This document shows, in pieces, positions 1 to 18,767 of a stretch of DNA of 22,215 nucleotides (positions within the stretch are counted from its first letter, which is position 1; each line of letters opens with the position of its first letter). This DNA is from a virus. The notes under the pieces were generated by a model. That model was not told the DNA's origin. It made no database searches and worked only from the letters and a program-made list of their open reading frames with translations. The DNA is taken from UHGV virus genome UHGV-0087471; one strand, 5' to 3'. The position numbers and the translations under genes were made by a program.

Positions 1-49
1 CCTGCATAGCAATGCGCCGTAATACCTTACACCACGGCGCTGGTGATGG

Positions 50-229
50 TTACTCCTGCTCTTTGGCTTTGCGGCGCTGGCGGCGTTTGATCTCGCCTTT
101 TGCGGCAGTAACTAAAAAACCAGCGGTACTTTCGCCAGGTTCTTTAAGTTGCTCAATATCATCCATTACTTCATGTGGGATTCTGACAGTTGTCATTTGT
201 GATTTTGCGTTCTTTGCACCAGTTGCCAT
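50..229 (-). CDS. Small ribbon-helix-helix-like DNA-binding regulator (59 aa)
   Basis: Minus-strand ATG at 229..227 preceded by AGGAG; translation MATGAKNAKSQMTTVRIPHEVMDDIEQLKEPGESTAGFLVTAAKGEIKRRQRRKAKEQE has a beta-strand/helix/helix pattern and basic tail; divergent from the + strand genes. Start chosen by RBS, not the longest ORF (50..397). Confidence 0.4.
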   Translation of the reverse strand: MATGAKNAKSQMTTVRIPHEVMDDIEQLKEPGESTAGFLVTAAKGEIKRRQRRKAKEQE

Positions 230-618
230 TTCTGGATCTCCTAAAAATTGGTGTATGTCAGTATACGCAAAAAAAATGATAAAAAAAGGCTTGAAGTGTA
301 TTTCACCAGTGAGTAAATTAAAAAGCAAAGGTGAAATACACCTGAAAGAGCAACGCCCCGCAGTGCTCGCAACACATGCAGGGCGTCTAACCACCAACGA
401 TAGAAAGAGTATCGAGGTAGCTATGAGAAATCATACCACACACCCGCAAGGGCGGGACTCGCACAACCTGAATAAATATATCTGGCGTTTTATCGCCCTG
501 AGCACGGCACAACCGCGCGTGATTACCATTGAGGCCACCAGCGAACAGGAAGCACGCCAGCAATCCCCGGCTGGCTGCGTGATGGTATTCGCCGCCCGTA
601 TTCGTCAGGGGGTGAGTC

Positions 619-846
619 ATGCATAAAATACCCTTTGATGTTCTTGTTCATTCTGAAAACGCATTAATCCGCGCAAAGGAAATGGACGCATTACTACTTA
701 AGTTAATTGATGTGCCGGAAAGTGGCGAAGATCATTCATCATTAATGTTTGCCGCTGTTCAGACATTATTGACACCTGTTATTGATGAACTCAATAAGGC
801 TATGGCAATTCACGAGAATAATAAAGCGCCCCACACCGGAGAATAA
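619..846 (+). CDS. Hypothetical protein (75 aa), satellite early region
   Basis: ORF with GGGGTGAG RBS upstream of ATG 619; tightly followed by next gene. No recognisable motif. Confidence 0.45.
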   Translation: MHKIPFDVLVHSENALIRAKEMDALLLKLIDVPESGEDHSSLMFAAVQTLLTPVIDELNKAMAIHENNKAPHTGE

Positions 847-851
847 AAATA

Positions 852-1151
852 ATGAAACTTAAATATTCTGGCTTAACTGCCAGTGGCAAAACTCGCACTA
901 AATTCATGCGCGGTGATATTTACCGCGACCAGTACGGCGGCACGGTAATGATTAAGGGCGTGGAGGAACGGCGCGTAACCTACCGTCGTGAAGGCTACGA
1001 ATATGATTGCGTGATGCCTGTTTATCAGTTCGATCGTGATTTTTCTCTGGTGCAGGCCGTACCGCGTAACGTGCCCACCAGCAGGGAGAAAGCACGCGCC
1101 AATATTCAGGAAATAAAAAAGATGCTTAACGTATTCAGGGGTAAAAAATGA
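852..1151 (+). CDS. Hypothetical protein (99 aa)
   Basis: ORF with GGAG upstream; stop overlaps primase start (ATGA at 1148..1151), suggesting translational coupling. Confidence 0.45.
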   Translation: MKLKYSGLTASGKTRTKFMRGDIYRDQYGGTVMIKGVEERRVTYRREGYEYDCVMPVYQFDRDFSLVQAVPRNVPTSREKARANIQEIKKMLNVFRGKK

Positions 1152-2896
1152 AACTGGCACCGAACGTAAAAAAACAGCCACGCGGAATAAAACACAAAGA
1201 CACAGAGGTAATTATTTTCGCGGGTAGTGATGCCTGGTCGCACGCGAAACAATGGCAGGAGCAGGATGGCCCCGCATCCGGCGATAATGTGCCGCCTGTG
1301 TGGCTTGGGCCAAATCAGCTTGCCGAACTTGATGCACTGAAAATTGTTCCGGATGGAAAAAAACGCGTAAGGCTGTACCAGGCCGGAGAACTGGATTTGG
1401 TGGAGACCAAAAAGATTGGTCAGAAGCTGGCGGCGGCAGATATTCAGGACGCAAATTTTTACCCCGAAGGAATGCACGTCCAGAAGTGTGAAAACTGGCG
1501 GCGCTATCTGAATGCTGAGCGTGAAAATATTGCCGCAGGGCTTACCATGCCGGAGCAGAAAAATACGCAACTGGCACAAATGGCAGACAGTGAGCGCGCA
1601 CAGATGCTTGCTGGTCGATTTGATGGCGTTTGTGTGCATCCGGAAAGTGAAATCGTTCACGTATGGCGCGGCGGGGTATGGTGTCCGGTCAGCACAATGG
1701 AACTTAGCCGCGAAATGGTGGCGATCTATTCAGAGCACAGGGCCACTTTCAGCAAGCGCGTAATCAATAACGCCGTGGAAGCGTTAAAAGTTATTGCCGA
1801 ACCAATGGGCGAGCCGTCCGGTGATTTGCTGCCGTTTGCCAATGGTGCGCTTGACCTGAGAACAGGGGAATTTTCCTCTCACCAGCCGGATAACTGGATC
1901 ACCACACACAACGGCATTGAGTACACGCCGCCAGTACCAGGTGAGAATATCCGCGACAACGCGCCAAACTTTCATAAATGGCTTGATCACGCTGCCGGAA
2001 AAGACCCGGGCAAGATGATGCGCATATGTGCCGCGCTATACATGATTATGGCGAACCGGTACGACTGGCAGATGTTTATTGAGGCCACCGGAGACGGCGG
2101 GAGCGGCAAGAGCACTTTCACGCACATAGCCAGCCTTCTGGCAGGGAAACAGAACACCGTAAGCGCTGAGATGACATCACTCGATGATGCTGGTGGGCGT
2201 GCGCAGGTTGTCGGAAGTCGGCTTATTGTCCTGGCAGACCAGCCGAAATATACAGGCGAAGGCACGGGCATCAAGAAAATCACGGGCGGCGACCCTGTGG
2301 AGATTAACCCGAAATATGAAAAGCGATTCACGACCATAATCAGGGCTGTGGTACTGGCGACCAACAACAACCCGATGATATTCACGGAACGGGCCGGAGG
2401 CGTGTCACGTCGTCGCGTGATTTTCCAGTTCGACAACATTGTAAGGGAGGACGAAAAAGACAAGGATTTGCCGGAGAAGGTCGCGGCTGAAATCCCCGTA
2501 ATTATACGCCGCTTGCTGGCTAATTTTGCCGACCCTGAAAAGGCACGGGCTTTACTCCTGGAACAGCGCGACGGTGATGAAGCACTGGCGATAAAGCAAC
2601 AGACGGATCCGGTTATTGAGTTTTGCCAGTTCCTGAATTTTCTGGAGGAAGCACGCGGCCTGATGATGGGTGGCGGTGGCGATTCCGTGAAGTACACGAC
2701 CAGAAACAGCCTTTACCGCGTCTATCTGGCGTTTATGGCATACGCAGGAAGAAGCAAGCCGCTAAACGTGGCTGAGTTCAGCAAGGCCATGAAGCCAGCG
2801 GCAAAAGTTTACGGACATGAATATATTACGCGGAAAGTTAAGGGAGTAACGCAGACCAACGCAATTACAACGGATGATTGTGACGCGTTTTTATAA
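1148..2896 (+). CDS. Phage/plasmid primase-helicase (P4 alpha-like / D5-type NTPase), satellite replication initiator
   Basis: 582-aa ORF with Walker A P-loop (ATGDGGSGKSTFT) in the middle of the protein followed by a helicase-like region; size and position immediately upstream of an iteron array are typical of PICI/P4 pri-rep proteins. Confidence 0.8.
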   Translation: MKLAPNVKKQPRGIKHKDTEVIIFAGSDAWSHAKQWQEQDGPASGDNVPPVWLGPNQLAELDALKIVPDGKKRVRLYQAGELDLVETKKIGQKLAAADIQDANFYPEGMHVQKCENWRRYLNAERENIAAGLTMPEQKNTQLAQMADSERAQMLAGRFDGVCVHPESEIVHVWRGGVWCPVSTMELSREMVAIYSEHRATFSKRVINNAVEALKVIAEPMGEPSGDLLPFANGALDLRTGEFSSHQPDNWITTHNGIEYTPPVPGENIRDNAPNFHKWLDHAAGKDPGKMMRICAALYMIMANRYDWQMFIEATGDGGSGKSTFTHIASLLAGKQNTVSAEMTSLDDAGGRAQVVGSRLIVLADQPKYTGEGTGIKKITGGDPVEINPKYEKRFTTIIRAVVLATNNNPMIFTERAGGVSRRRVIFQFDNIVREDEKDKDLPEKVAAEIPVIIRRLLANFADPEKARALLLEQRDGDEALAIKQQTDPVIEFCQFLNFLEEARGLMMGGGGDSVKYTTRNSLYRVYLAFMAYAGRSKPLNVAEFSKAMKPAAKVYGHEYITRKVKGVTQTNAITTDDCDAFL

Positions 2897-2909
2897 TTTT
2901 TTGTAAAAG

Positions 2910-3142
2910 CCCTCTACCCCATCTACCTGAATGAAATAAACGCATATTATTCAACATGATAAGTGGGTAGAGGGATAGGTAGAAGGCTAATAAAACCCCT
3001 CTACCTCCTCTACCATGATTAAGGTCGTTTGTGAGGGGCGGGTAGAGGATGGGTAGAGGGCCACGAAAAGCCCTCTACCCATCTGAAAGCCGCGCCATTA
3101 CTGACCTGAAAGATGATTAGGTAGAAGAGGTAGAGGAGGTGC
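2910..3142. repeat. Iteron array, putative replication origin of the satellite
   Basis: At least 8 copies of GGGTAGAGG / CCTCTACC(C) in both orientations within about 230 bp of non-coding DNA directly downstream of the primase gene (e.g. 2910-2928, 2965-2986, 2996-3014, 3035-3060, 3071-3083, 3117-3142). Confidence 0.55.
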
Positions 3143-3183
3143 ACCACAACCTAAAACTTTTTAAACGAGGGGGGTAAAAATAA

Positions 3184-3498
3184 ATGTGCATACATCAAAA
3201 TCACTTAACAAACATGCCGACCGAAAACATGAATCAGGGGCGACAAATGACCAAAATGCGCAGAGACAGAACAGAACCGAAATATCGCGCGTTAGACATG
3301 ACAGAGCACGCTTTAAAGGTGGCAATCAGAACGATAGACCGCCACGCGGGGGAAGGATACGCGAAAGCACATCCCGAACTGATAAGCGCATTCATGACCA
3401 CGGCGGCGGCAAACTTTGCCACGCTGACAGAACGGGAGATTGCCGAAGCGGAACAGGTAACAACCATCAACGTTAAAACCGGAGAGGTGGAATTATGA
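3184..3498 (+). CDS. Hypothetical protein (104 aa)
   Basis: ORF with GAGGGGGG RBS about 10 nt upstream of ATG 3184; overlaps start of SSB gene. Start uncertain (internal Met codons possible). Confidence 0.4.
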   Translation: MCIHQNHLTNMPTENMNQGRQMTKMRRDRTEPKYRALDMTEHALKVAIRTIDRHAGEGYAKAHPELISAFMTTAAANFATLTEREIAEAEQVTTINVKTGEVEL

Positions 3499-3920
3499 CG
3501 GCACAGATAGCCGCTTACGGGCGGCTGGTGGACGACCCGCAGGTAAAACAGACCAGCAAGGGCACACCGATGACGCTGGCGCGTATGGCGGTATCTTTGC
3601 CATGCAGCCAGGCACAGGACGGACAGGCGACGTTATGGTTATCGGTCATCGCATTTGGCAAACAGGCCGACTTCCTGGCTAAACATCAAAAAGGCGATGT
3701 TGCCAGCGTATCCGGCACGATGCAGGTAAGCCAGTGGACCGGACAGAACGGAGAAACGCGGCAGGGCTGGCAGGTTATCGCAGACAGCGTGATCAGTGCG
3801 CGAACAGCGCGACCGGGCGGCAAAAAAGGCCAGCAGGGGCAGGCCACTGACGCACTGAACAGGGCAAAACAGCAGACGGGTCAGCACGATGATCCGTACG
3901 GGGACAACATACCGTTTTAG
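3495..3920 (+). CDS. ssb: Single-stranded DNA-binding protein (SSB-like, 141 aa)
   Basis: OB-fold-like N-terminal region, Gly/Gln-rich linker and acidic C-terminal tip ending DDPYGDNIPF, which resembles the conserved SSB C-terminal D-I-P-F tail. Confidence 0.7.
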   Translation: MTAQIAAYGRLVDDPQVKQTSKGTPMTLARMAVSLPCSQAQDGQATLWLSVIAFGKQADFLAKHQKGDVASVSGTMQVSQWTGQNGETRQGWQVIADSVISARTARPGGKKGQQGQATDALNRAKQQTGQHDDPYGDNIPF

Positions 3921-4185
3921 CGACAACAGAGGGGACATTCCAGTGACATTTGAAGAAGTCCAGCAACATAAAAAGTTTCATGATTTTGATGATCTGGAAA
4001 CCATGACAGCAAAAAAATATCGCCGTCTGCTTTCTTCCGATGCGTTGTTTGTTGTGGATCATCATGATTTTCTGCGTAGCTCACTGACCGGGGAAATTTT
4101 CGCAACCAACCGTGAGCAGGTGGAAGCGATGATCGAATATCTGTGGAAAATAAGGCGCAGAATGCGAGATCCCGTGAAACGGTAA
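3889..4185 (+). CDS. Hypothetical protein (start uncertain; alternative GTG at 3943)
   Basis: ORF overlapping SSB 3' end; followed by a stem-loop terminator. No recognisable motif. Confidence 0.35.
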   Translation: MIRTGTTYRFSDNRGDIPVTFEEVQQHKKFHDFDDLETMTAKKYRRLLSSDALFVVDHHDFLRSSLTGEIFATNREQVEAMIEYLWKIRRRMRDPVKR

Positions 4186-4194
4186 AATAATAAA

Positions 4195-4221
4195 GGCCTG
4201 GTAAAATCCAGGCCATTTTTT
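4195..4221. terminator. Bidirectional intrinsic terminator between convergent genes
   Basis: GGCCTGG-TAAAAT-CCAGGCC hairpin followed by ATTTTTT; sits between + strand gene ending 4185 and - strand gene ending 4220. Confidence 0.5.
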
Positions 4222-4726
4222 ACAGTAAGCCTATTAGGGCACTTGCGCCAGCCCCAACAATGCTGGCAACGGTACTGTTTTCCAGTAACTGCTTTAATAC
4301 TGATTTGGCTTGTACATCCCCCGATTTAGCGACTTTTTCAACCAGTTCAGTGATGCTGATGTTTACCAGCATATGGTTATGCTCACCTATCTGCACTTGA
4401 TCACCACTAATTGAACCAATGTTAAATGTATTACTTTTAGTTGGCGTCATATGTTCATTTCCCGTGATATTTTCAATATAGAGAGTCAACATATTTGGAT
4501 GATTGGTTCCCTGTCTGCGGGTTCCATTGGGAAGCAACTTCATATCTATAATTTTTAGATTTATCTCGTTTTTACCGACACGCTGGATAATGTGTTGACC
4601 AATAGTTACTTCCGGTTCATTTGTATATGGAATTAATACCTTGTTTTCTTTTGCGTTTCTTTTACCTCTGAATGATTCGCCATTAATTATGAAAGTATCA
4701 GGGTATACCATTGCGCTTAAATTCAT
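4220..4726 (-). CDS. Hypothetical cargo protein (168 aa) with hydrophobic C-terminus; candidate accessory/anti-phage gene
   Basis: Only opposite-strand gene inside the satellite; AT-rich by eye relative to flanking satellite genes; C-terminus VASIVGAGASALIGLL looks like a membrane anchor; located between replication and packaging modules. Confidence 0.55.
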   Translation of the reverse strand: MNLSAMVYPDTFIINGESFRGKRNAKENKVLIPYTNEPEVTIGQHIIQRVGKNEINLKIIDMKLLPNGTRRQGTNHPNMLTLYIENITGNEHMTPTKSNTFNIGSISGDQVQIGEHNHMLVNISITELVEKVAKSGDVQAKSVLKQLLENSTVASIVGAGASALIGLL

Positions 4727-5012
4727 GATGCGTCCTTTGTTGTAGTCAGAGACAGCAATAATAGGCCATGGTTTACTTCTTTTGTAAATTATTTGTTCGT
4801 GTTCTTTCGTGGTTGTTCGGTCTGACTGACAGGTGTTTACATACTGATTTTTATGTATATGTTGTAGCGTGGCACTCAGACGTGAGCCGCCACAATGCCG
4901 CCTGACCCCCTGCGCGATGCCGGGTTGATCTGCGAGATGCCGAGAGTGTCGGGCGGCGCTCCCCCCGTGTTGGTTTCACGTCCTGAATCTTAACCAATAC
5001 GAGAAAACCTTC

Positions 5013-6182
5013 ATGAAGAAATTAATCGAACTCCGCCAGCAAAAAAACGCCCTGAAAAACCAGATGCGATCCCTGCTGGAAAAAGCCGACAGTGAAAACC
5101 GTAGTCTGAACGCTGAAGAAGGCAAACAGTTTGATGAACTGCGTGCAAAAGCTGATGCCCTCGACACAGAAATTTCCCGCCTCGAGTCTGTGGCTGATGA
5201 AGAACGCAGCAAGCCAGGAACGGGCATCCAGAAATTATCATCTGATGAATTGCGTAACTACATCGTAACCGGAGATGTGCGATCACTGTCCACCAGCACT
5301 GACAGCGGCAGGGATGGCGGATATACCGTAATTCCTGAGCTTGATCGCGAAGTCATGCGCCAGCTACAGGATGACAGTGTTATGCGCGTGATCGCGACCG
5401 TGAAGACCGCAAAATCAAATGAGTTTCAGAAACTGGTTTCCACTGGCGGCGCAACTGTAGGACGAGGCACAGAAGGCAGCGCACGCAGTGAAACCAACAC
5501 CCCGAAAATTGAACGCGTAACCATCAAGTTGAATCCGATCTACGCCTACCCGAAAACCACGCAGGAAATCCTGGATTTTTCAGAGGTGGATATTCTGGGC
5601 TGGTTATCCTCCGAAATTGCCGACACGTTCGCCAGCACCGAAGAGGATGATTTTGTTAATGGCGACGGTAACGGCAAGCCGAAAGGCTTCATGGCTTACA
5701 CCCGTGCGGCGACCAGTGACAAAACCCGCGCTTTTGGCACCATTGAAAAAATAGTAGCGGCAAGTGGAACCGCCATTACAGCGGACGAACTGATCGACAT
5801 TCTCTACAAGCTGAAAGCGAAATACCGCAAAAATGCCGTATGGGTGATGAACTCGGGCACGGCAGGGACACTACAGAAGCTGAAAAATGAGAACGGCGAT
5901 TATATCTGGCGCGACAGCCTTAAAGAAGGTGCGCCGGATATGTTGCTTGGTCGTCCTGTTTACTGCCTGGAGTCCATGCCGGACATCGGCGCAGGAAAAG
6001 CACCGCTAGCGGTTGGCGATTTCAGTCGTGGTTATTTCATCGTTGATCATGTAACAGGGATTCGCACCCGACCGGACAACATTACTGAACCCGGATTCTA
6101 CAAGGTCCACACGGATAAATATCTGGGCGGTGGTGTGGTGGATTCAAACGCCATCAAAATTCTGGAAATGAAAGCTGGCTAG
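5013..6182 (+). CDS. Major capsid protein, HK97-like fold (389 aa)
   Basis: N-terminal coiled-coil delta/scaffold-like domain followed by a capsid-type region (GNGKPKG, LLGRPV..ES motifs); size typical of HK97-family capsid proteins. Confidence 0.85.
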   Translation: MKKLIELRQQKNALKNQMRSLLEKADSENRSLNAEEGKQFDELRAKADALDTEISRLESVADEERSKPGTGIQKLSSDELRNYIVTGDVRSLSTSTDSGRDGGYTVIPELDREVMRQLQDDSVMRVIATVKTAKSNEFQKLVSTGGATVGRGTEGSARSETNTPKIERVTIKLNPIYAYPKTTQEILDFSEVDILGWLSSEIADTFASTEEDDFVNGDGNGKPKGFMAYTRAATSDKTRAFGTIEKIVAASGTAITADELIDILYKLKAKYRKNAVWVMNSGTAGTLQKLKNENGDYIWRDSLKEGAPDMLLGRPVYCLESMPDIGAGKAPLAVGDFSRGYFIVDHVTGIRTRPDNITEPGFYKVHTDKYLGGGVVDSNAIKILEMKAG

Positions 6183-6192
6183 TCATGAGTAA

Positions 6193-6216
6193 GGAGGAGG
6201 CTGCGGCCTCCTTTTT
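6193..6216 (+). terminator. Intrinsic terminator/attenuator downstream of capsid gene
   Basis: GGAGGC-TGCG-GCCTCC hairpin followed by TTTTT immediately after the capsid stop codon. Confidence 0.45.
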
Positions 6217-6236
6217 CAGCTTTATGGAGTACACCG

Positions 6237-6797
6237 ATGAAAAACACCGATTTTGAAATCCGCACATCTGAACTGACCGCCAGCAATAAAAAGCTGGTGG
6301 GGTATGCCGTTCGCTGGAACAGCCTTTCAGAAATTATCTGGGACGAATTCCGCGAACAGTTCACGCCGGGGGCTTTTGCTGACTATCTGGCGACGGGTAA
6401 TGATGTGCGCTGCCTGTATGAGCATGACTATACCCAACTGCTGGGGCGCACCAAATCCGGCACTCTGGTACTGACTGAGGATAACACCGGGTTACGTTTT
6501 GAACTGACACCGCCGGATACCCAGCTTGGAAAAGATGTGCTTACGCTGGTGGAGCGTGGCGACATTACAGGAATGAGCTTTGGTTTTCGCGCATTATGCG
6601 AGGAGTGGAGTATCGCGCAAAAACCGTATCTGCGTACCGTAACCGCCGCTGAACTCCGTGAAATCACAATAACGTCGATGCCTGCTTATCCAGAATCTGG
6701 CGTGGAGATTGCCCACCGTTCGTTGTTTGCACAGCACCCTGAATTACGTCCGACAGGAAATAATCTTCATCGCTGGTCTGAGCTGGCGGGGTTGTGA
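6237..6797 (+). CDS. Prohead maturation protease, HK97 family (186 aa)
   Basis: Conserved His (LYEHD) and Ser (ITGMSFGF) motifs with spacing typical of HK97 gp4-type proteases; GGAG RBS. Confidence 0.85.
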   Translation: MKNTDFEIRTSELTASNKKLVGYAVRWNSLSEIIWDEFREQFTPGAFADYLATGNDVRCLYEHDYTQLLGRTKSGTLVLTEDNTGLRFELTPPDTQLGKDVLTLVERGDITGMSFGFRALCEEWSIAQKPYLRTVTAAELREITITSMPAYPESGVEIAHRSLFAQHPELRPTGNNLHRWSELAGL

Positions 6798-6798
6798 T

Positions 6799-8013
6799 AT
6801 GTGGTGGCCTTTTAGTCGTAAAAAAAGCGAGCAGCGTAACCTGTCCATTGATGATTTTCTGGCGCTGTCCGGCGTACCGAATACCGGATCCGGAGAATAT
6901 GTTTCTGCCGGGACGGCTGAATCATTGCCTGCAGTGATGAATGCGGTTTCTGTCATCGCTGAGGCGGTGGCCACGATGCCGTGTTATCTGTATCTGGTAC
7001 GTAATGACAAGGGCAGGGAGGCGCGGGAATGGCTGGACAGTCACCCGGTAGATATTCTGCTGAATGAGCAGCCTAATTCGTGCCAGACACCTTACCAGTT
7101 TAAACGCACAATGATGCGTCACTGCCTGCTGAACGGTAACGCCTATGCGGTTATTGAGTGGGGGCAGGACGGGCAGCCAAAATCACTTCATCCTTATGCG
7201 CCGGGGTGTGTTGTACCGGAACGCACAGGCGCACACAAATACCGCTATACCATCACCGAACCCTGTACAGGAACGGTGCGCACGTATTTACAGGAAGAAG
7301 TTCTGCATCTCCGCTATGCCTCGGATGATGGCTTTCTGGGGCGTTCCCCCGTCACGATTTGCCGTGAGGCGCTGGGGCTTGGCCTTGCTCAACAGCGTCA
7401 CGGAGCCAGCATTATGAAAGATGGCATGATGGCGGCAGGGATTATCACGTCAGGCGAATGGCTGGACGGCGTGAAAGGTAAACAGGCATTGGATGCTCTG
7501 GAACGCTACAAGGGGGCGAAAAATGCCGGAAAAACGCCAATCCTTGAAGGGGGCATGGATTACAGGCAACTGGGAATGAGTAACCAGGATGCGGAATGGC
7601 TGGCCTCCCGTCGCTTCTCCATTGAAGACATCGCCCGCATGTTCAACGTATCGCCTATTTTTCTGCAGGAATACAGCAACAGCACCTACAGCAATTTCAG
7701 CGAGGCAAGCCGCGCGTTTCTGACCATGACAATGCGCCCGTGGCTGGCGAACTTCGAACAGCAAATCAAGGCCGCTTTGCTGGTGGCTTCTCCCGTACCT
7801 GGTACCCGTTATCTGGTTGAGTTTGATTCAGCCGATTTATTACGCGCCACACCCACCGAACGTTATGCCACGTATGAGAAAGGGATTAAGAACGGGATCA
7901 TGAATCCGAACGAAGCCCGTGAGCGTGAGGGTATGCCGCCGCGTGAAGGTGGTGATGAGTTCAGCCAGGCATGGAAACAGACTGTGGAAATTAAAGGGAG
8001 AAAAGATGAGTGA
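6799..8013 (+). CDS. Portal protein, HK97 family (404 aa)
   Basis: Size and motifs typical of portal proteins; start set to ATG 6799 just after the protease stop rather than the longest ORF start at 6709. Confidence 0.8.
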   Translation: MWWPFSRKKSEQRNLSIDDFLALSGVPNTGSGEYVSAGTAESLPAVMNAVSVIAEAVATMPCYLYLVRNDKGREAREWLDSHPVDILLNEQPNSCQTPYQFKRTMMRHCLLNGNAYAVIEWGQDGQPKSLHPYAPGCVVPERTGAHKYRYTITEPCTGTVRTYLQEEVLHLRYASDDGFLGRSPVTICREALGLGLAQQRHGASIMKDGMMAAGIITSGEWLDGVKGKQALDALERYKGAKNAGKTPILEGGMDYRQLGMSNQDAEWLASRRFSIEDIARMFNVSPIFLQEYSNSTYSNFSEASRAFLTMTMRPWLANFEQQIKAALLVASPVPGTRYLVEFDSADLLRATPTERYATYEKGIKNGIMNPNEAREREGMPPREGGDEFSQAWKQTVEIKGRKDE

Positions 8014-8308
8014 AGCCAAAATTACACCTGATGAAGTCAGGGCACATCTTCGACTTGATGATGATTTATCCGGTGAAGGCGAACTTCTGAAAATGTATAC
8101 CGATGCGGCGCTGGAAGCCTGCCAGAAGCATATCGGGAAACGTTTTGAAGACGGGCTGGAATTTACCCCGGCAATGCGTGTTGGTTGCCTGATGTACATC
8201 GCTTTCCTGTACGAGAACCGGGAAGCGGTTTCACCAGTGGAGCACTCGGAACTGCCTATGGCTATTTCTGCGCTCTGGTCAGTTTATCGTGACGTAGGGG
8301 TGTACTGA
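8006..8308 (+). CDS. Head-tail connector / DNA-packaging protein, gp6-like (100 aa)
   Basis: N-terminal ITPDEVRAHLRLDDD...E..LLK.Y.DAA.EA pattern typical of gp6-like connectors; AAGGGAG RBS; start ATG 8006 overlaps portal stop. Confidence 0.6.
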   Translation: MSEAKITPDEVRAHLRLDDDLSGEGELLKMYTDAALEACQKHIGKRFEDGLEFTPAMRVGCLMYIAFLYENREAVSPVEHSELPMAISALWSVYRDVGVY

Positions 8309-8748
8309 TGCCGTGGCAACCATTAAGGCGATGCACTGAGCCTGGCTGTAATAAGCGCGTGAAGTCCGGCAAGTGTGAAGAGCACAGGCGGGCTGCATGG
8401 CGTGCAGAGGATGCCAGACGGGGACACCGCCGCGCGCGCGGGTATTCCCGACAGTGGGACAAATACCGCGCCCTGTACCTGAGCAAAAACCCGTTATGCG
8501 TGAGTTGTCTGGCTAAGGGGATTTATACGCCAGCTCTTGTGGTGGATCACATCATTCCCATCAATGGCGGCGGTGATGTTCTCTTCTGGCCTGAGTGGAA
8601 CCACCAGGCATTGTGCCAGACGTGCCACAACCGTAAGACGACACGGGAAGATCCCGCCACGAAAGCGAACCGTAAGGCGGGCATGTATCGCGATCAGGAA
8701 GAACGGGCGGCACACCGTAACGACTGGATGTATGGCGATGATGACTGA
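8308..8748 (+). CDS. HNH endonuclease (terminase-associated, 146 aa)
   Basis: Cys-rich N-terminus (CTEPGCN...C..H) and HNH core (VDHIIPINGGG...NHQALCQTCHNRKT); positioned directly upstream of terS as in HNH-dependent cos packaging systems. Confidence 0.85.
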   Translation: MPWQPLRRCTEPGCNKRVKSGKCEEHRRAAWRAEDARRGHRRARGYSRQWDKYRALYLSKNPLCVSCLAKGIYTPALVVDHIIPINGGGDVLFWPEWNHQALCQTCHNRKTTREDPATKANRKAGMYRDQEERAAHRNDWMYGDDD

Positions 8749-9036
8749 ACAGGAGCAAAACAGGCTGATACGTGGGTTGATAAGGCAGCGTGACACATGG
8801 AAGACACAGGAGACAGGGCACAAAGCCAACAGGACAGGGCGCACAAAACGCACCACAGCGAAGCGATTAACCGACCGTGACCGCGAGGTCATGGAATGTT
8901 TTCGCAATCGCTGGTGAGGCCGTCAGAGGGGGTGGGGGTGGTTTTCAGGACGAAACCGTCCCTGCCGGACACCGACCGCCTCCCCAAATTTTTATGCACG
9001 GGAATTTTTTGAAAAATAATCTGACGAAAAATAAGC

Positions 9037-9393
9037 ATGGCAAGACCACCGAAAGCCCCCGCCTACCTGGATGATATCGCCGTGAAGCAGTGGCGGGAAA
9101 AATCGCGGCAGCTTGCGGAACGGGGAGACCTGACCCCCGCCGACTGGAGCAATCTGGAACTGTATTGCGTCAACTACTCCATTTACCGGAAAGCCGTTGC
9201 AGACCTTGCGGCGCGCGGGTTCAGCATTGTTAACAGTCAGGGCGGCGAGAGCAGAAACCCCGCATTAAGCGCAAAATCCGACGCTGAAAGAGTGATGATA
9301 AAAATGGCCTCCTTGCTCGGTTTTGACCCGATAAGCCGCCGTAAAAATCCACCGGAAACAGAAGAAGAGGACGAGCTTGACCGCCTGGAATAA
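9037..9393 (+). CDS. terS: Terminase small subunit (P27-family-like, 118 aa)
   Basis: Sequence pattern (W...L..G.L...D...L..YC..Y..Y..A...L...G......G....NP) and position immediately upstream of and overlapping the large terminase gene. Confidence 0.75.
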   Translation: MARPPKAPAYLDDIAVKQWREKSRQLAERGDLTPADWSNLELYCVNYSIYRKAVADLAARGFSIVNSQGGESRNPALSAKSDAERVMIKMASLLGFDPISRRKNPPETEEEDELDRLE

Positions 9394-11038
9394 GTACGCA
9401 GAAGACGTAAAAACGGGCAAAATTCCGGCCTGTAAACGGCTGAAACAGGCCGTTAAACGGTACTTTTCGGACCTTGAAAGCCCCCTTTACACGTTCGATC
9501 GTGAGGTTGTGGAGCGGTTTATTGCCTTTTCCAGGGTGTGCGCGCACGTAAAAGGGCCGATGCGTGGCAGACCCATTGAGCTGGAGCCGTGGCAGCAGTT
9601 CGCCTTTGCGTGCATCCTCGGCTTTAAGGTTAAGGCCACCGGACGGCGCAAATACACGAGCGCCTTTATCGAAGTGCCGCGCAAAAATGCGAAATCCACG
9701 ACCGCCGCGATTCTGGCTAACTGGTTTCTGATTATGGAGAACGGTCAGCAGGATATCTACACCGCAGCGGTGAGCCGTGACCAGGCGCGGATCGTCTTTG
9801 ATGATGCGCGTCAGATGTGCCTTTTATCCCGACCGTTACGCAGGCGGGTGAATATTCAGGCGCATAAGGTGATACACCCGAAAACCAACAGCCTGTTAAA
9901 GCCACTGGCAGCAAAAGCGGCAACCATTGAGGGGACAAACCCGAGTCTTGCCATTGTGGATGAATATCACCTGCACCCAGACAACGGGGTTTATTCCGCA
10001 CTTGATATGGGGATGGGCGCACGTCCCGAAGGGCTGTTATTTGCCATTACCACATCGGGCAGTAACGTCGTTTCAGCCTGTAAGCAGCACTATGATTATT
10101 GCTGCCAGATCCTGGACGGCGAAGAGGTCAACGATTCAATTTTTGTACTGATTTACGAACTGGACGACGAAAACGAGGTTGATGATCCGGCGATGTGGAT
10201 AAAGGCTAACCCTAACATCGATGTTTCCGTCGATCGTGAAAAACTGGCCTCAACCATCCAGAAAGCGCGGGGTATTCCGTCGCAATGGGTGGAAATGCTC
10301 ACCAAGCGATTCAATATCTGGTGTCAGGGGGCTACGCCGTGGATGGGTAACGGTGCATGGGCGGAGTGTGCCGGAACGTTCGCGGAGGCGGATTTATACG
10401 GGCAGGAGTGCTACGCGGGGCTGGACTTATCATCAACCAGCGATATTTCCAGCGTGTGCTATGCCTTCCCGGTCGGTAAAAAGATTATGCTGGTTTCCCG
10501 TCACTATCTGCCGGAATTTCAGCTACAGAATCCCGCCAATAAAAACCGCGCCATCTATCGCCAGTGGGTAAAGGCGGGCTGGATACGCACAACACCGGGT
10601 GACTGCATTGATTATGACCGTATCCGTGATGACATCATGGCGGATGCAGAGAATTTCAATATCAGGCTGGTGGGCTTCGATACATGGAACGCCACGCACC
10701 TGAGGACGCAGTTACAGGGCGCAGGATTTGAGGTGGAGCCGTTCCCGCAAACCTACCTCAGATTCAGTCCGGCGGCGAAATCGTTCGAAGTTTTTGTTAA
10801 CCGGAAGGTGATTGTGCATCGTGGTGATCCGGTGCTGGCCTGGTCAATGAGTAATGTTGTGATGCAGAGTGACGCGAACGCCAATATCAAGCCGAACAAG
10901 AAAAAATCATCCAACAAGATAGACCCGAGCGTTGCGGCGCTGATGGCGTTTGGCACATTCCAGGCAGAGCACGAGGACTTTGCATTCGATATGAGCGACA
11001 GCCACAAAGAGCGGCTTGCGGCGTTTGATGGGGTATGA
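9377..11038 (+). CDS. terL: Terminase large subunit (553 aa)
   Basis: Large ORF with terminase-type ATPase N-terminal half and nuclease C-terminal half; appears to start with TTG at 9377 (GAGGA 6 nt upstream), overlapping terS. Confidence 0.9.
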   Translation: MTAWNKYAEDVKTGKIPACKRLKQAVKRYFSDLESPLYTFDREVVERFIAFSRVCAHVKGPMRGRPIELEPWQQFAFACILGFKVKATGRRKYTSAFIEVPRKNAKSTTAAILANWFLIMENGQQDIYTAAVSRDQARIVFDDARQMCLLSRPLRRRVNIQAHKVIHPKTNSLLKPLAAKAATIEGTNPSLAIVDEYHLHPDNGVYSALDMGMGARPEGLLFAITTSGSNVVSACKQHYDYCCQILDGEEVNDSIFVLIYELDDENEVDDPAMWIKANPNIDVSVDREKLASTIQKARGIPSQWVEMLTKRFNIWCQGATPWMGNGAWAECAGTFAEADLYGQECYAGLDLSSTSDISSVCYAFPVGKKIMLVSRHYLPEFQLQNPANKNRAIYRQWVKAGWIRTTPGDCIDYDRIRDDIMADAENFNIRLVGFDTWNATHLRTQLQGAGFEVEPFPQTYLRFSPAAKSFEVFVNRKVIVHRGDPVLAWSMSNVVMQSDANANIKPNKKKSSNKIDPSVAALMAFGTFQAEHEDFAFDMSDSHKERLAAFDGV

Positions 11039-11328
11039 CGAGAATGAGCGAAACCGAACTACTAAAAATAATCCGCCGTGTTACCGGAGCCAGCCAGACA
11101 GCAGACAAACAGGAGGCCACGCAGCCGGACAGCGTGATAGCCGAAAATTACGCGCGTGTGGTGGCTGAGGTGATGCGCCGTGACGGTATTGAGCTTAACG
11201 GCGTGGATATGCGCAACATACGAACCAGAGTCCTTGAGTTGCTGGCATACCGTCGCCGTTCTCAACAACGGAGGGAGAGCGCGAAAAATACTTATCAGTG
11301 GAAGAAGCCGGAACGGTTGCGGCGGTAA
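11035..11328 (+). CDS. Hypothetical protein (97 aa), last gene of packaging module
   Basis: ATG 11035 overlaps terL stop (ATGA); basic C-terminus; no recognisable motif. Confidence 0.4.
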   Translation: MTRMSETELLKIIRRVTGASQTADKQEATQPDSVIAENYARVVAEVMRRDGIELNGVDMRNIRTRVLELLAYRRRSQQRRESAKNTYQWKKPERLRR

Positions 11329-12254
11329 CTTGCAGATATTCCCGATAACGTAAAATTGCGTTGGCTGGCAGAGTGCAAATTTGCACGATGGCCTAACCCA
11401 TTGATTGTTTCGGAAACCTCAATTTGAGGAGGCCGGACAGCGTGACGGAGGGTGACAACCAGTGACACGCCGTGACAAAAAGACGGTTTAACCATCCATT
11501 AAAAATCGACGTGATTTTGTGCTTTCCGTATGAGGTGGCCAGCGTCATTTTTTAGTGAGAAATTCTGGTCAGGGGCGTTGGCTGAATGGTTATTTTATCG
11601 TGCCCATGCACAGGGAGGGGGCGGGTAAAATCTCTGGAGGTGATGCCTGTCAGGACCGCCGCCTGACCCTTCCTCACATCGCCGCAGGTTCGAAAACTTT
11701 TTTTGTGTCAGGTGCGCACGGAATTGATAGATAAAACCTATATTAAAAAATCACGGAAGCCGTGCCATTGCTGGAGCAGTCAAAAATTCCACATCTCACG
11801 GCAGGCAAAAAAAGCGAATTTTGGGCCAGTTGAGGATAAAAAAGGGCTCACTAGTTTTGCACATCCTGGTATCGGGGTCGTCAGCCTCCCGCCAGTAACT
11901 AGGTAACTAATCACGCTGGTGGGCATGATGCCGATGCCGGGATCTCGGTATCGGTTTATCTGTGATCATCCACCAGCTTGATGACAGATAACAGGGAGTC
12001 ATAACGGTTAAAGCGTGTTGATCTTTGTTCGTGGTTGTTCGATATTGTTCGTAAAGCGGTGTAGTTAATGGTGTAGTTAATTTCGCTGTTTTTGACGAGC
12101 TTATCATTTGCAACGCAATGAAAAACAAAGACTAATTAACAAAATGCTATAAATGATAGTTATCTATCATGTGGAGTAGATTGGTCAGGCAAATAAGCTC
12201 TTGTCAGCGGCAGGGCGTTCTGCCGATAACCGTAACCGAAGATGATAACTGACA

Positions 12255-15094: not shown

Positions 15095-15182
15095 GTTCAC
15101 TGCCGTACAGGCAGCTTAGAAATTGCCGCGGATCCTGTCTGCCAATAATGACAAGTTCACTGCCGTACAGGCAGATAAAATG
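15095..15182 (+). CRISPR. Minimal orphan type I-F CRISPR array (2 repeats, 1 spacer)
   Basis: Repeat 1 GTTCACTGCCGTACAGGCAGCTTAGAAA (15095..15122) matches the canonical I-F repeat; 32-bp spacer TTGCCGCGGATCCTGTCTGCCAATAATGACAA (15123..15154); repeat 2 (15155..15182) degenerate at its 3' end. No cas genes in window. Confidence 0.8.
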
Positions 15183-15385: not shown

Positions 15386-15678
15386 GAAGAATTTTTATGA
15401 TAATTATTGTTTGCTCATACTGTAAACAAGTTGTGCAGTATATCTACATCTGATGCGCCGCGCGATAAATAAGCCGCAATCCGTGAGATAAATGGACACA
15501 GTGCGGCTTTTCAGATACGGAAAAGGAATTACAGATTATCAGTCGTAAGCAACCCACGCTTACTGGCAAGGATGGTTTACAATGCTGAAAGCGCCTCCCG
15601 GCAATACCGCCAATCATCACTCAAACAGAAAAAATTATTGCTCATGGTTCACTCCGGTAATGAATCGTTTTACAGGCG

Positions 15679-16272
15679 TCATTCGGTCATGGAAAGATTG
15701 CTGATTTCGGTAATCCCGGCAATTTCCTCGCTGACGGATTTCAGTTCGATTTCCAGCTTGGTGCGTTCGTTGACCAGCGCAGCTACGGTCTTACGGCGGT
15801 CTGCCAGTGACGGAAGGTTGTCATTGCCCCACGCCACGCTTTTATCCTTTTTGAGCGCTTCGGTCAGGCGGGTGGCGACCACATCCGGGAAGAAAAAGCA
15901 TAACTTACGCATAACCGTCATCCCGACATCAGCCAGGGGGACATTCCCGCTCAGTCCCACCAGACGGAACAGACCAGAAATATCACCATTCTCATTTTCC
16001 AGATTACCCCAGCGTTCGGCGTTCCCTTCACTGCCGGAACCGTTGCAAAGAGCAAGCTTGAATGACTGATATTCTTCCTGCCCGAATCGCTCAATATATT
16101 CAGGAATAAAGGAACAGTAATCATTAAGCGATAATGGCATATCCTGTAATGTGGTTATTTCACTGTTAATCTCTCCAATTCGGCGGGAGAGCTTTTCTTT
16201 CTGCTCATTCAGGGAGGCAAGATTATTTTTAACGGCGTTCAGTGCTTCGATAAGGGAAATAACAGGTTTCAT
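15679..16272 (-). CDS. Hypothetical coiled-coil protein (197 aa), scaffold-like
   Basis: Start ATG 16272 with GGAG RBS, 1 nt after stop of upstream gene; N- and C-terminal heptad-like segments (LIEALNAVKNNLASLNEQKEKLSRRIGEINSEITTLQ; KTVAALVNERTKLEIELKSVSEEIAGI). Function inferred only from composition. Confidence 0.55.
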   Translation of the reverse strand: MKPVISLIEALNAVKNNLASLNEQKEKLSRRIGEINSEITTLQDMPLSLNDYCSFIPEYIERFGQEEYQSFKLALCNGSGSEGNAERWGNLENENGDISGLFRLVGLSGNVPLADVGMTVMRKLCFFFPDVVATRLTEALKKDKSVAWGNDNLPSLADRRKTVAALVNERTKLEIELKSVSEEIAGITEISNLSMTE

Positions 16273-16273
16273 T

Positions 16274-16888
16274 TTAATAACTCCAGATGAAAGGCGTGGT
16301 GAGGGCGAGCGCTTCAGAATAGGAGACATTGCAGGCTGCACTTACGTCCTTTATTAAAAGGTGCTGTGCTGCCCTCTGACTGTCTGCTATGCCGTCAAAC
16401 TCTGAAAAATGAACGTGTGATTCATTGTGATAAAAGCAAACCGGGTAACAGCTTTCCATAAATTCTACCTGCGCCAGTCCCTTTACTGCTGGAGGCTGTG
16501 AGCCGAGAAAACCGATATGCTGAAGATACCAGGCACCGATTCCTGCCGGGTTGTTCGCTTCGCCGGGTCTATAAAATGCCGCAGACACTTTCCTGTAACG
16601 CCCTGCGCGTACCAGTCCCAGCAGGGTTTCATCAGGCTTAACCAGCGCGAAAAGCCTGCCGTTTTTACTTATCAGCCCAGTTGTTTCACCATAAGATGGG
16701 CTGTTGCTGGCCGGATGTCCAATACACAGCGGCGCACCATAACCCGCACGATGATAGCCGTTATAGGCTGCCGCCATGTTGTCGATATCCTCGTCGGAAA
16801 AGGCAATTTCCTGCCCAGCCATCGTGATATGCGTTCCCGCCCGGAATATCTCGATAGTTTTCCAGTTGCCAATATCGATATCTTTCAT
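16274..16888 (-). CDS. Hypothetical protein (204 aa); weak resemblance to phage prohead proteases (HK97 / Mu gpI-like)
   Basis: Start codon overlaps stop of upstream Mor-like gene. By-eye motif similarity to the satellite's own HK97 protease: His-containing CIGHP, then GLISKNGRLFALVKPDETLLGLV...KVSAAFYR paralleling GTLVLTEDNTGLRFELTPPDTQLG...TGMSFGFR. Unverified. Confidence 0.5.
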   Translation of the reverse strand: MKDIDIGNWKTIEIFRAGTHITMAGQEIAFSDEDIDNMAAAYNGYHRAGYGAPLCIGHPASNSPSYGETTGLISKNGRLFALVKPDETLLGLVRAGRYRKVSAAFYRPGEANNPAGIGAWYLQHIGFLGSQPPAVKGLAQVEFMESCYPVCFYHNESHVHFSEFDGIADSQRAAQHLLIKDVSAACNVSYSEALALTTPFIWSY

Positions 16889-16889
16889 T

Positions 16890-17423
16890 TTAAATTACCC
16901 CATATTTCGCATCGCGCTGTATTTTATTTTTCTTGCGTTCGGCGGCTATAATCTGATAAATACACTGAATGGAACGCTTGTATTTTTTTGATAGTTCAAA
17001 AATAGAGATACCCTGATAAAAATCAGCCAGTATTTTTGAGTTCCTGTCGAAAGTGTTTTTTGATGCGCCCATAGGGATATATATATTCCCCCTGAAAAAT
17101 GTATTCCTGAGACATTCAGTGATGGCAGGAGAAAGTTTTTCGGCTTGCGAACAGAGGTAAGGTATGGTTCCTAATGTCTGCTCAATAGATTCAGTCAGCT
17201 CCTGTAGGAAGCGAACTGCCTTAGGTGCTCTTTCTCGGTGTTCAGCCATATACCCCTGGCAGCCACCAAGGTTATCAGAGATACCCAACACAATATGATT
17301 AGCCGCACTGCAGGACTGTTGCCGTGAATACCCTTTGTTGATCAGAAACACTTCTATAGCATCGCCCATTGCCCCCAAAGTATCGGATGAAGCATACAAT
17401 CCTTCTCTTGTAATCATAATCAC
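16890..17423 (-). CDS. Mor/C-family transcriptional activator-like protein (177 aa)
   Basis: C-terminal region GNIYIPMG...FDRNSKILADFYQGISIFELSKKYKRSIQCIYQIIAAERKK resembles the Mu Mor motif (G.VYIP.G ... DF.G.N..EL...Y......Y.I) with a C-terminal HTH; identification from remembered family signature, not a search. Confidence 0.5.
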   Translation of the reverse strand: MIMITREGLYASSDTLGAMGDAIEVFLINKGYSRQQSCSAANHIVLGISDNLGGCQGYMAEHRERAPKAVRFLQELTESIEQTLGTIPYLCSQAEKLSPAITECLRNTFFRGNIYIPMGASKNTFDRNSKILADFYQGISIFELSKKYKRSIQCIYQIIAAERKKNKIQRDAKYGVI

Positions 17424-17657
17424 ACCTCGTCAACGATAAATATGCGCACATAAAGCCTTTATAAAGCTTTATGAGGTGCATTACTGGTGTCATTCCATGA
17501 TGCACACCACCAACAACCAAAAACGCCTTACAGAGCATTTCAATGTGTGTTATTAATGTGGATTAAGAATATGGTTTTGGGGCGAGAATGTTTTTTAATG
17601 TACTTTAGATATGACGAAGCCCCTCAAAGGAGGGGCGAGGCGGAAAACTATTTATAA

Positions 17658-17936
17658 CTATTCCTTACTCTCCTGATCAAGACGATTACCTATCAGGTTA
17701 ATCATTGCCATTGCATCAGATAGCAGGATACTGTTAACAAGTGCTAAGGGCGTCTGTGTTGATTTATCATCAACGGCAACAGAAAGTTCATCATTCAGGC
17801 GACGAACGGCCTCAAGACGGCTAAAGGCGGCTTCCCATATTTCTGTACTCGGGGCATCAGCATTAACAAACAAAACATCGTAAGACGTTCCCTGAGACTC
17901 ATGAGGACAGGCTATGAAATTAGCAGTAGCTTTCAT
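17658..17936 (-). CDS. Hypothetical acidic protein (92 aa)
   Basis: ORF whose start overlaps the stop of the upstream gene (ATGA at 17933..17936); no recognisable motif. Confidence 0.45.
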   Translation of the reverse strand: MKATANFIACPHESQGTSYDVLFVNADAPSTEIWEAAFSRLEAVRRLNDELSVAVDDKSTQTPLALVNSILLSDAMAMINLIGNRLDQESKE

Positions 17937-18412
17937 TTTGCAGTCCTCCGGTTAATTATAAATTTATTATAAATTTCATAACTTGCGGCATTCAGTCCTG
18001 GACTGTATTTATCTGCCAGTGAACAGGCAATGAATTCTTCAATCGATTTAGTCAGTATATCAAGCTCAGTTGTTCCGGAATAACGCAAGGCCACTCGAAA
18101 TAATTCTCGGCAGTATGTTTTTTTATGGTCAATATTTTGTAACTGCTGTTGCGGTATATCACGACGTTCAAATATATTAACAAATGCATTAAGCGGGAAG
18201 CTATGATTTGCCTGCGGATATTGCTCATAGGAAAACACCACAGTATTACCGTTGCATTCTTTAACAATTGCATTCATACCGCTGTTAATTTCAATATACC
18301 ACTCTCCTATACATGGAGGATTGATAGCTTCGCTCTGTGCCTTGATTAAAGGTAAGCGGATAGTATCCACTTGGTTTGTTGCAACTGAATCGTTAGACTT
18401 GTCGTTAGCCAT
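17933..18412 (-). CDS. Hypothetical protein (159 aa)
   Basis: Start ATG 18412 with AGGA RBS about 9 nt upstream (longest ORF extends to 18430); first gene of the minus-strand cluster; no recognisable motif. Confidence 0.45.
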   Translation of the reverse strand: MANDKSNDSVATNQVDTIRLPLIKAQSEAINPPCIGEWYIEINSGMNAIVKECNGNTVVFSYEQYPQANHSFPLNAFVNIFERRDIPQQQLQNIDHKKTYCRELFRVALRYSGTTELDILTKSIEEFIACSLADKYSPGLNAASYEIYNKFIINRRTAK

Positions 18413-18600
18413 GACTGTTATCCTACACATAACGGTTTTTGGTTAGGCCATAGCAAGTGCTCGCAACATTTGTTATGGCCGTTTCTTTGGCCCTTTCCCT
18501 GTGATAAGGTATAGACCTAACAAGTAAACACTAAGCCATAGGTCTATACATGTCAACTATCTTGAGAGATAAAAGCCAAAAAGGGGCAGGGAAAGCCCCC

Positions 18601-18741: not shown

Positions 18742-18767
18742 TGTTTTAGTCTCCCTGTGTTTGATTA

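Follow-up and report, generated by a model that had tools for sequence, protein, structure and literature searches.

A probable capsid-forming phage satellite with a single neck gene at the cspD-clpS locus of Escherichia coli

The virus genome UHGV-0087471 is a 22,215-nucleotide stretch of DNA (hereafter the window, meaning the whole of this stretch) that matches chromosomes of Escherichia coli. Its left part very probably belongs to a 14.5-kb integrated capsid-forming phage-inducible chromosomal island (cf-PICI) of the EcCIEDL933 family, which entered the chromosome by way of its tyrosine integrase at a 21-nt site between cspD/yljB and clpS. By its sequence the element appears to be of a known kind, a member of the published cf-PICI family that is conceptually nothing new as a cf-PICI. 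It differs from the EcCIEDL933 prototype in the neck of its capsid, for which it encodes a gp6-like connector and no head-completion protein. We conclude from comparisons with other genomes that this one-neck-gene layout is apparently a recurrent, maintained variant, and we raise tentatively, at clearly less than even chances, the possibility that islands without the head-completion gene are a recurrent and selectively maintained cf-PICI sub-type that would take its stopper as well as its tail from a helper phage.

Identity and integration site of the island

Bases 1-12000 of the window are 100% identical to 16 of the 5,426 complete E. coli chromosomes, including those of SaT040, S21EC, and an O25:H4 strain, and the chromosomes matching at 100% are ST131-type E. 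coli; partial matches to the same bases occur in about 2,160 genomes. The SaT040 record (locus L001) served as the coordinate frame, window positions being L001 positions minus 12000. In SaT040 the sequence leftward of the window holds cspD, the small gene yljB, a 412-aa tyrosine integrase, and a 69-aa AlpA-family regulator, such that the island's left-end genes and attL lie 0.3-2.3 kb beyond the window's left edge, and the sequence rightward of the island holds clpS, clpA, and tRNA-Ser, with clpS starting at 12255 directly after the island. Alignment of both junctions to the empty K-12 site gave a precise insertion between cspD/yljB and clpS bounded by a 21-nt direct repeat: the K-12 match runs up to ATAGATGATAGTTAT(T/C)TATCA at the left junction and restarts from the same 21-nt sequence at the right. 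The island measures 14,509 bp from attL to attR, with 12,169 bp of it inside the window. When the left junction was searched, most genomes matched only to the att core, and the sampled rows included another O25b:H4-ST131 strain; this suggests that strains of the lineage differ in carrying the island, K-12 being the only empty site aligned base by base.

Gene calls were checked by profile searches (Pfam, TIGR/NCBIfam, PHROG) and compared with published definitions of these satellites. The SatelliteFinder cf-PICI model has 11 core components, of which at least nine are required, and forbids tails and holins (de Sousa et al. 2023, PMC10085698). Ten of the 11 are present in the island (a tyrosine integrase at one end, AlpA, primase-replicase, capsid, protease, portal, gp6-like connector, HNH endonuclease, and the small and large terminase subunits, TerS and TerL), which corresponds to Type B, the commonest class in that survey (459 of 969; SatelliteFinder; de Sousa et al. 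2023, PMC10085698). The sole component not found is the head-tail adaptor, i.e., the head-completion protein of family PF05521. Profile scans for tail, baseplate, holin, and endolysin/lysis families returned no match in any open reading frame (ORF) between attL and attR, in line with the exclusion of tail, holin, and lysis genes from published cf-PICI definitions, and the flanks are cspD/yljB and clpS. The length of 14,509 bp also falls within the size criterion of about 10-18 kb given for cf-PICIs (He et al. 2025, bioRxiv 10.1101/2025.02.11.637232). Functionally, cf-PICIs are defined by alpA-mediated helper induction, small capsids of their own that package only island DNA, and helper-tail-dependent transfer (Alqurainy et al., bioRxiv 10.1101/2022.09.08.507074).

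The closest published counterpart in layout is EcCIEDL933, the prototype cf-PICI of E. coli O157:H7, this type of element having first been demonstrated in strain EDL933; at 15.4 kb it is similar in size and has the same order of int, alpA, DUF4222, primase/replicase (Pri/Rep), origin, small ORF, ssb, and cargo slot, followed by capsid, protease, portal, connector, HNH, small ORF, TerS, TerL, small ORF, and a long non-coding right arm. The capsid protein is a full-length match to PDB chain 9GYI_B (E = 7e-154), with the 227-248 loop aligned without deletion; this structure is that of the EcCIEDL933 capsid, whose T=4 shell has a diameter of 47.5 nm and encloses a 15.5-kb genome (He et al., bioRxiv 10.1101/2025.02.11.637232). 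As the EcCIEDL933 type we used the island adjoining phoQ in O157:H7 ATCC 43890 (L007), which encodes the 9GYI sequence. Protein identity to this island is highest for TerS (100%), TerL (95%), DUF4222 (93%), and the ORF preceding ssb (90%), intermediate for HNH and SSB (83% each), portal (81%), the 61-aa ORF (80%), integrase (78%), and last ORF (73%), and lowest for AlpA (66%), capsid (63%), protease (61%), and connector (56%). The two islands differ in their att sites (phoQ-adjacent in O157:H7, cspD-clpS here), in Pri/Rep proteins that are alike only over the N-terminal 160 residues, in a cargo slot that holds PerC and a hypothetical gene in the EcCIEDL933 type but the opposite-strand gene orf168 here, and in the head-completion ('adaptor', PF05521) gene that EcCIEDL933 has between portal and connector.

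These results bear out much of an earlier sequence-only reading of the window, which had proposed a cf-PICI-like satellite with a P4-type primase/helicase, an iteron origin, and a single-stranded DNA-binding protein (SSB). The satellite assignment agrees with the gene content and order of EcCIEDL933 and with the capsid match, and the replication features were reproduced by the profile searches and a motif count. That reading had called for a leftward extension to find int, alpA, and attL, all of which are present in SaT040, and for a comparison with an island-free cspD-clpS region, which in K-12 returned a clean insertion with att duplication; tail, baseplate, and lysis genes, which it had reported absent, matched no ORF and do not adjoin the island on either side. 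It had placed the island at 1-11700 beside clpS; the location stands, but the right end is at attR, leaving that estimate about 470 bp short, and the left end is 2.3 kb outside the window. The gene order, which it had singled out as not canonical for HK97, does differ from that of HK97, but it equals the capsid-protease-portal-...-HNH-TerS-TerL order listed for cf-PICIs (He et al. 2025, bioRxiv 10.1101/2025.02.11.637232) and so belongs to the family as a whole rather than being peculiar to this island.

A head module with one neck gene

The EcCIEDL933 type and the cf-PICI of ST131 strain ZH063, a close relative, both have a pair of genes separating portal from HNH. One encodes a head-completion protein of 112 aa (PF05521, 1.4e-23), which NCBI labels 'head closure' and which, judging from where it lies, corresponds to the 'adaptor' in the cf-PICI literature; the other encodes the gp6-like connector. 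In the present island the 298-nt interval from portal end to HNH start is wholly taken up by the connector gene, the sole neck gene, whose start overlaps the portal stop by 8 nt. A family hidden Markov model (HMM) made from 63 cf-PICI head-completion proteins did not find the gene in the island or window in six frames (best E = 1.2, against 2.5e-44 for the ZH063 control), PF05521 had no Pfam match in any ORF, and no remnant of the gene was found. The head and packaging set had been described from the sequence as complete; every gene call in it was upheld by the profile searches, but measured against the studied cf-PICIs the set is not fully complete. The accompanying proposal that the satellite borrows only helper tails holds as to its being a satellite and may understate what it needs from the helper, given one neck gene here and two in the studied cf-PICIs. 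We found no report of cf-PICIs without the adaptor in the literature searched, although an earlier mention is possible.

The ZH063 island (L006; NZ_CP014522.1, 823-837 kb) is identical to the present one in integrase (WP_001576601.1), AlpA, TerS, TerL, and last ORF, its right arm is identical over the aligned 820 bp, and its Pri/Rep is 96% identical; it has the head-completion gene, however, and its connector and capsid are only 54% and 81% identical, its cargo is PerC, and it sits at uvrB-bioD. Its att core is related but not identical (GATTGATGACAGTTATTTATCA versus GATAGATGATAGTTATTTATCA; L006 1640-1670 and 16670-16700). This comparison indicates that the head and neck segment was in all likelihood exchanged as a cassette. 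Variable neck cassettes, along with cargo slots on both sides of the packaging operon and the same family criteria, also feature in the published descriptions of EcCIGN02175 and KpCIDSM30104, by which rather than by sequence we compared them; both of these islands have adaptor and connector genes, and it was with them that tail-less capsids were demonstrated to pirate tails (He et al. 2025, bioRxiv 10.1101/2025.02.11.637232).

At a threshold of 90% identity, about 155 genomes among the 5,426 complete ones of E. coli contained the contiguous portal-connector-HNH junction; their sources were humans, poultry, pigs, and cattle. A further band at 80-90% identity comprised about 379 genomes, O157:H7 strains included, in which the sampled rows had the two-gene form except for two partial portal-only matches. 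The one-gene head module occupies at least three chromosomal sites and is found on differing int and rep backbones: at cspD-clpS in SaT040, with the backbone described here; at rcnR-thiM in SMS-3-5, with an integrase 66% identical and a different replicase; adjoining fis in 2022CK-00450, with a RepA-type helicase and DUF3775 cargo; and beside a truncated HK97-like prophage in 2014C-3075 (L091). The ratio of nonsynonymous to synonymous substitution rates (dN/dS) among these islands was 0.05-0.12 for the portal, 0.09-0.23 for the connector, 0.10-0.31 for the protease, and 0.38 for the capsid, the last from few substitutions, values that point to purifying selection on the head genes.

In a set with each species represented by one genome, 80 loci with related portals were recovered, about 70 of them with enough downstream sequence to judge. 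In ten of these roughly 70 loci there is no head-completion gene, and about 300 nt separate portal from HNH: two each in Xenorhabdus sp. TCT-1 and Symbiopectobacterium, and one each in Pantoea formicae, P. rodasii, Yersinia aleksiciae, a Leclercia metagenome-assembled genome, Erwinia psidii, and Gilliamella App6-5. The one-neck-gene loci are scattered over rough portal and TerL trees, with Gilliamella App6-5 beside relatives that have the gene, and their connectors tend to sit on long branches apart from their portal neighbors. Scatter and long connector branches together fit an exchange of neck-segment cassettes such as He et al. describe for two-gene necks.

Two further observations concern the arrangement of these loci. 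At L091 (13895-20797), the TerL gene of the one-neck-gene cf-PICI is followed 0.5 kb on by a 5'-truncated TerL pseudogene and then by the full set of head, neck, and tail genes of an HK97-like prophage, an arrangement that is either a tandem insertion or a recombinant. Several Xenorhabdus genomes contain many separate cf-PICI-type portal loci (for example, four in X. mauleonii, five in X. innexi; loci L025-L087), some on short contigs, which suggests a multi-copy island expansion.

Two genes of the island were considered as a substitute for the missing one. The cargo protein orf168 was rejected as a divergent head-completion protein: profile-profile comparison with cf-PICI head-completion proteins gave a probability of 0.3%, and its presence does not track the absence of the gene, orf168 being present in eight islands that have the gene and undetected in 10 of the 10 other-species loci without it. 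The last ORF (11044-11328) was rejected as a neck protein, being all-helical with a basic tail and no fold match and occurring also in islands with the head-completion gene.

In the necks of siphophages and myophages, a gp6-like adaptor is normally capped by a head-side stopper before tail docking (SPP1 gp15/gp16, HK97 gp6/gp7, Virfam 'Ad1/Hc1'). Most simply, and with perhaps a little less than an even chance of being right, islands without the head-completion gene may use the helper's head-completion protein. The principal competing explanation is that the island is a decaying cf-PICI that may still make and fill capsids but cannot join tails after loss of the gene, and that persists only by vertical inheritance. 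Published work on EcCIEDL933 found all genes of the packaging module except '1792' (probably, from the gene numbering, the 61-aa ORF between HNH and TerS) to be required for transfer, so an island without the head-completion gene could be transfer-defective, and adaptor and connector jointly determine which tails the capsids join (He et al. 2025, bioRxiv 10.1101/2025.02.11.637232). Also in favor of decay are the absence of the gene with no remnant, the Icd-like pseudogene fragment in the left arm (window 1-48), and the restriction of this exact island to 16 near-identical human isolates among the 5,426 genomes. Against it, the one-neck-gene head module is intact in the roughly 155 E. coli genomes and accompanies differing integrases and replicases at no fewer than three chromosomal sites; dN/dS in its head genes is 0.05-0.38; cf-PICIs of other genera show the same layout in several unrelated lineages; and the clean overlap of portal stop and connector start resembles a coupled gene pair and not a deletion scar. 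On this evidence we consider decay unlikely. The possible transfer defect, the pseudogene, and the rarity of the exact island nevertheless weigh against the main reading of the island as a working cf-PICI, as do the detection of head-completion genes in other species by tblastn with one query plus gap length, the rough neighbor-joining method behind the portal and TerL trees, and the fact that induction, small capsids, cos site, and tail dependence are all carried over from EcCIEDL933.

HK97-type families account for the head and packaging proteins, and the related L091 island abuts a truncated HK97-like prophage, as might be expected if the element were the remnant of an HK97-like prophage with its tail, lysis, and lysogeny modules deleted, and not a satellite. 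This is very improbable: the att duplication defines both ends of a 14.5-kb element with clpS immediately after it, the left half is a PICI-type int-alpA-Pri/Rep-ori module, the gene order is that of EcCIEDL933 and unlike that of HK97, and the same compact tail-less layout occurs in dozens of species. What the island has in common with HK97 and its relatives is an HK97-fold capsid with a delta domain, an S78 protease, a portal, a gp6-type connector, and HNH-dependent TerS/TerL cos packaging; relative to the HK97 head module its order is rearranged, gp7-type head-completion, tail, lysis, and immunity genes are absent, and its length is roughly a third of the 41.5 kb of helper phage HK106. The att-bounded element does not hold the tail, lysis, and immunity genes of a complete HK97-like prophage. 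Scarcely credible is a P4-like satellite, as defined by sid, psu, and delta (capsid size, helper control) and by dependence on the capsid and terminase of the helper, or a classical PICI that remodels helper-encoded capsids, since the P4-family primase domain, AlpA regulator, and P4-type integrase architecture are accompanied by the island's own capsid, protease, portal, connector, and TerL, all absent from P4, and no ORF matches a Psu, Sid, or Delta-type family. Portal, head-tail connector, and adaptor are exclusion markers in the classical PICI model (SatelliteFinder; PMC10085698), and the island has both portal and connector.

Replication, regulation, cargo, and flanking sequence

The features of the island are listed in Table 1. 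In the left arm, a 204-aa ORF at 12-626 in a program-made list was rejected as a gene, the RefSeq annotation showing instead an Icd-like fragment, an opposite-strand YlcI/YnfO gene, and an Icd-like gene. The placement of the DUF4222 gene directly upstream of the replicase recurs in related islands. The Pri-Rep protein scored 105.1 bits (3.1e-30) against the TIGR01613 P4-family primase C-terminal domain, under the cut-off of 108.7. Eight exact copies of CCTCTACC/GGTAGAGG, in both orientations, all lie at 2911-3136 just downstream of the replicase gene, with none elsewhere in the 22 kb; because eight motifs in one spacer compare with 0.3 expected by chance (0 of 100 shuffles attained eight), we take the predicted iteron origin to be real.

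Table 1. Features of the island in window coordinates, or in coordinates of the SaT040 locus (L001) where stated
Feature	Position	Strand	Evidence or remarks
attL, ATAGATGATAGTTATTTATCA	L001 9661-9681, 2.3 kb left of window		alignment with K-12
Tyrosine integrase	L001 9849-11087		Phage_integrase 1e-18; Arm-DNA-bind_3 8.1e-16
AlpA-type regulator	L001 11497-11706		PF05930, 9.1e-16
YlcI/YnfO-family small protein (regulatory/left module)	50-229	-	SaT040 RefSeq annotation; phrog_949, 2.1e-20
Icd-like small protein (PHROG label 'transcriptional repressor')	423-626	+	RefSeq; phrog_6196, 1.7e-46
Conserved hypothetical protein	619-846	+	phrog_2196
DUF4222 protein	852-1151	+	PF13973, 5.3e-24; 93% identity to EcCIEDL933-type copy
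Primase/replicative helicase (Pri-Rep), P4/D5 type, 582 aa	1148-2896	+	D5_N 1.3e-14; DUF5906; Pox_D5
Predicted iteron-type replication origin	2905-3140		CCTCTACC/GGTAGAGG x8
Conserved hypothetical protein, translationally coupled to ssb	3247-3498	+	phrog_1231; 90% identity to EcCIEDL933-type copy
Single-stranded DNA-binding protein	3495-3920	+	PF00436, 1.7e-16
Conserved hypothetical protein	3937-4185	+	phrog_1957
Cargo gene orf168, variable slot upstream of capsid operon	4220-4726	-	phrog_5789 only
Conserved box TTTTGTAAATTATTTGT, then phased TTGTTCG repeats, upstream of capsid operon	4786-4819	+	candidate AlpA/Int site
HK97-fold major capsid protein, N-terminal delta (scaffolding) domain	5013-6182	+	PF05065, 1.9e-71; TIGR01554
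Prohead maturation serine protease (S78)	6237-6797	+	PF04586, 6e-46
Portal protein	6799-8013	+	PF04860, 2e-92; HK97-family portals in PDB
gp6-like head-tail connector (Virfam/PHROG 'Ad1')	8006-8308	+	PF05135 3.8e-05; phrog_40 4.9e-29; TIGR01560 4.8e-20
HNH endonuclease, TerS/TerL partner in HK97-type cos packaging	8308-8748	+	PF01844, 3.2e-09
61-aa protein between HNH and TerS	8732-8917	+	phrog_3173; 80% identity to EcCIEDL933-type positional homologue
Candidate cos region, GGGGTGGGGG..GTTTTCAGGAC block	8918-9036		island alignment
Small terminase subunit (TerS), P27 family	9037-9393	+	PF05119, 1.3e-23; 100% identity to EcCIEDL933-type TerS
Large terminase subunit (TerL), ATPase and nuclease domains	9377-11038	+	PF03354; PF20441; 95% identity to EcCIEDL933-type copy
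94-aa conserved last operon gene	11044-11328	+	phrog_1561; predicted three helices, basic C-terminal tail
Non-coding right arm	11329-12148		TTGTTCG x3 (12025-12051), GGTGTAGTTAAT x2 (12058-12081), mirroring left arm
attR core, ATAAATGATAGTTATCTATCA	12149-12169		86 nt 5' of clpS start codon; alignment with K-12

The GGGGTGGGGG..GTTTTCAGGAC block before terS is conserved across islands of E. coli, Shigella, and Klebsiella, and it was chosen as the cos candidate because TerS is identical to that of the EcCIEDL933 type; its position in the 120-bp spacer upstream of terS is what points to it.

Repeats of TTGTTY phased at 10 bp occur in exactly three places in the island, near attL upstream of int, before the capsid operon (4793 and 4813), and near attR (12025, 12035, and 12045), the clusters spanning L001 9758-9832, window 4786-4819, and window 12016-12088. 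Both att arms have the repeats followed by two GGTGTAGTTAAT-like copies. The first 14-15 nt of the TTTTGTAAATTATTTGT box also occur in Klebsiella and Enterobacter islands, and the attR and capsid-operon clusters are present in all three other E. coli islands examined, with different integrases, the attL cluster being present in both of those with the left arm sequenced. Since the raw count of the heptamer (11 versus 6.2 expected) is not significant alone, the argument for a shared site rests on the placement and phasing of the repeats. The right-arm repeats are probable arm-type Int/AlpA sites, and it is a reasonable hypothesis that a shared Int/AlpA site, with binding presumed from the repeats, couples excision to expression of the capsid operon. 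An Rfam scan of the window returned a tRNA and one CRISPR repeat only, with no match in the 820-bp right arm.

The cargo gene orf168 had no match in Pfam, NCBIfam, or PADLOC, and defense-system profiles gave nothing credible for the eight small unannotated ORFs scanned, orf168 included. Its family forms about 100 clusters, without annotation, in Enterobacterales, Pseudomonas, Shewanella, and Xanthomonas, and members occupy the same slot in eight other cf-PICIs. An AlphaFold 2 model has a beta-barrel and a helical C-terminus, the barrel resembling both phage stopper proteins and PilZ domains (PilZ and split-barrel scores are alike), and a Foldseek search of viral models was uninformative. In Pseudomonas, a homologue is found next to a HEPN protein within the cargo region of a P2-like prophage, a placement that fits the expectation from published cf-PICI work that accessory or immunity genes occupy the slots on either side of the packaging operon, and we regard orf168 as a candidate defense or interference gene.

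To the right of the island, a single 28-nt CRISPR repeat (window 15095-15122; Rfam CRISPR-DR4, 50 bits) lies between clpA and tRNA-Ser, an interval that we take to be where E. coli has its type I-F CRISPR locus, the lone repeat probably being a relic. About 6.6 kb separate tRNA-Ser(GGA) from infA (window about 15400-21900), compared with only about 250 bp in K-12. The genes of this segment are a Mor-family activator, a HicB antitoxin for which no HicA is annotated, an IS5-family transposase plus a transposase fragment, and four ORFs lacking annotation; no integrase is among them. SaT040 annotation shifted by 12000 is one base out of frame at window 15678-16341, the first gene past tRNA-Ser, and there may be an indel between the window and SaT040 downstream of the compared bases 1-12000.

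Proposed life cycle and significance

The steps of the life cycle are modeled on the EcCIEDL933 prototype, the present island being known from its sequence anatomy. A helper phage would turn on alpA, leading to excision and expression, and the P4-type primase/helicase with SSB would replicate the element from the iteron origin. Small HK97-fold procapsids would be assembled from products of the capsid operon, namely the portal, the S78 protease, and the capsid protein that carries the delta domain, while HNH, TerS, and TerL would cut and package island DNA at cos, probably in the spacer upstream of terS. The gp6-like connector would cap the portal, and the helper would supply lysis and tail; under the proposed sub-type, the head-completion (stopper, PF05521) protein would also be taken from an HK97-like helper. 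If this is true, released tail-less capsids would be unsealed or unable to dock free tails unaided, and such islands would be tied to HK97-like helpers inside the cell, limiting the extracellular 'tail piracy' route reported for cf-PICIs with two neck genes.

Satellites of the cf-PICI type are abundant and transfer genes both within enterobacterial species and from one to another; the present island is found in the pandemic ST131 background. In the published model, an island's adaptor and connector decide which phage tails, and hence which hosts, it can use. A circulating lineage with the connector only would be a direct test of the minimal satellite-encoded neck and of whether some cf-PICIs need their helper for more than tails.

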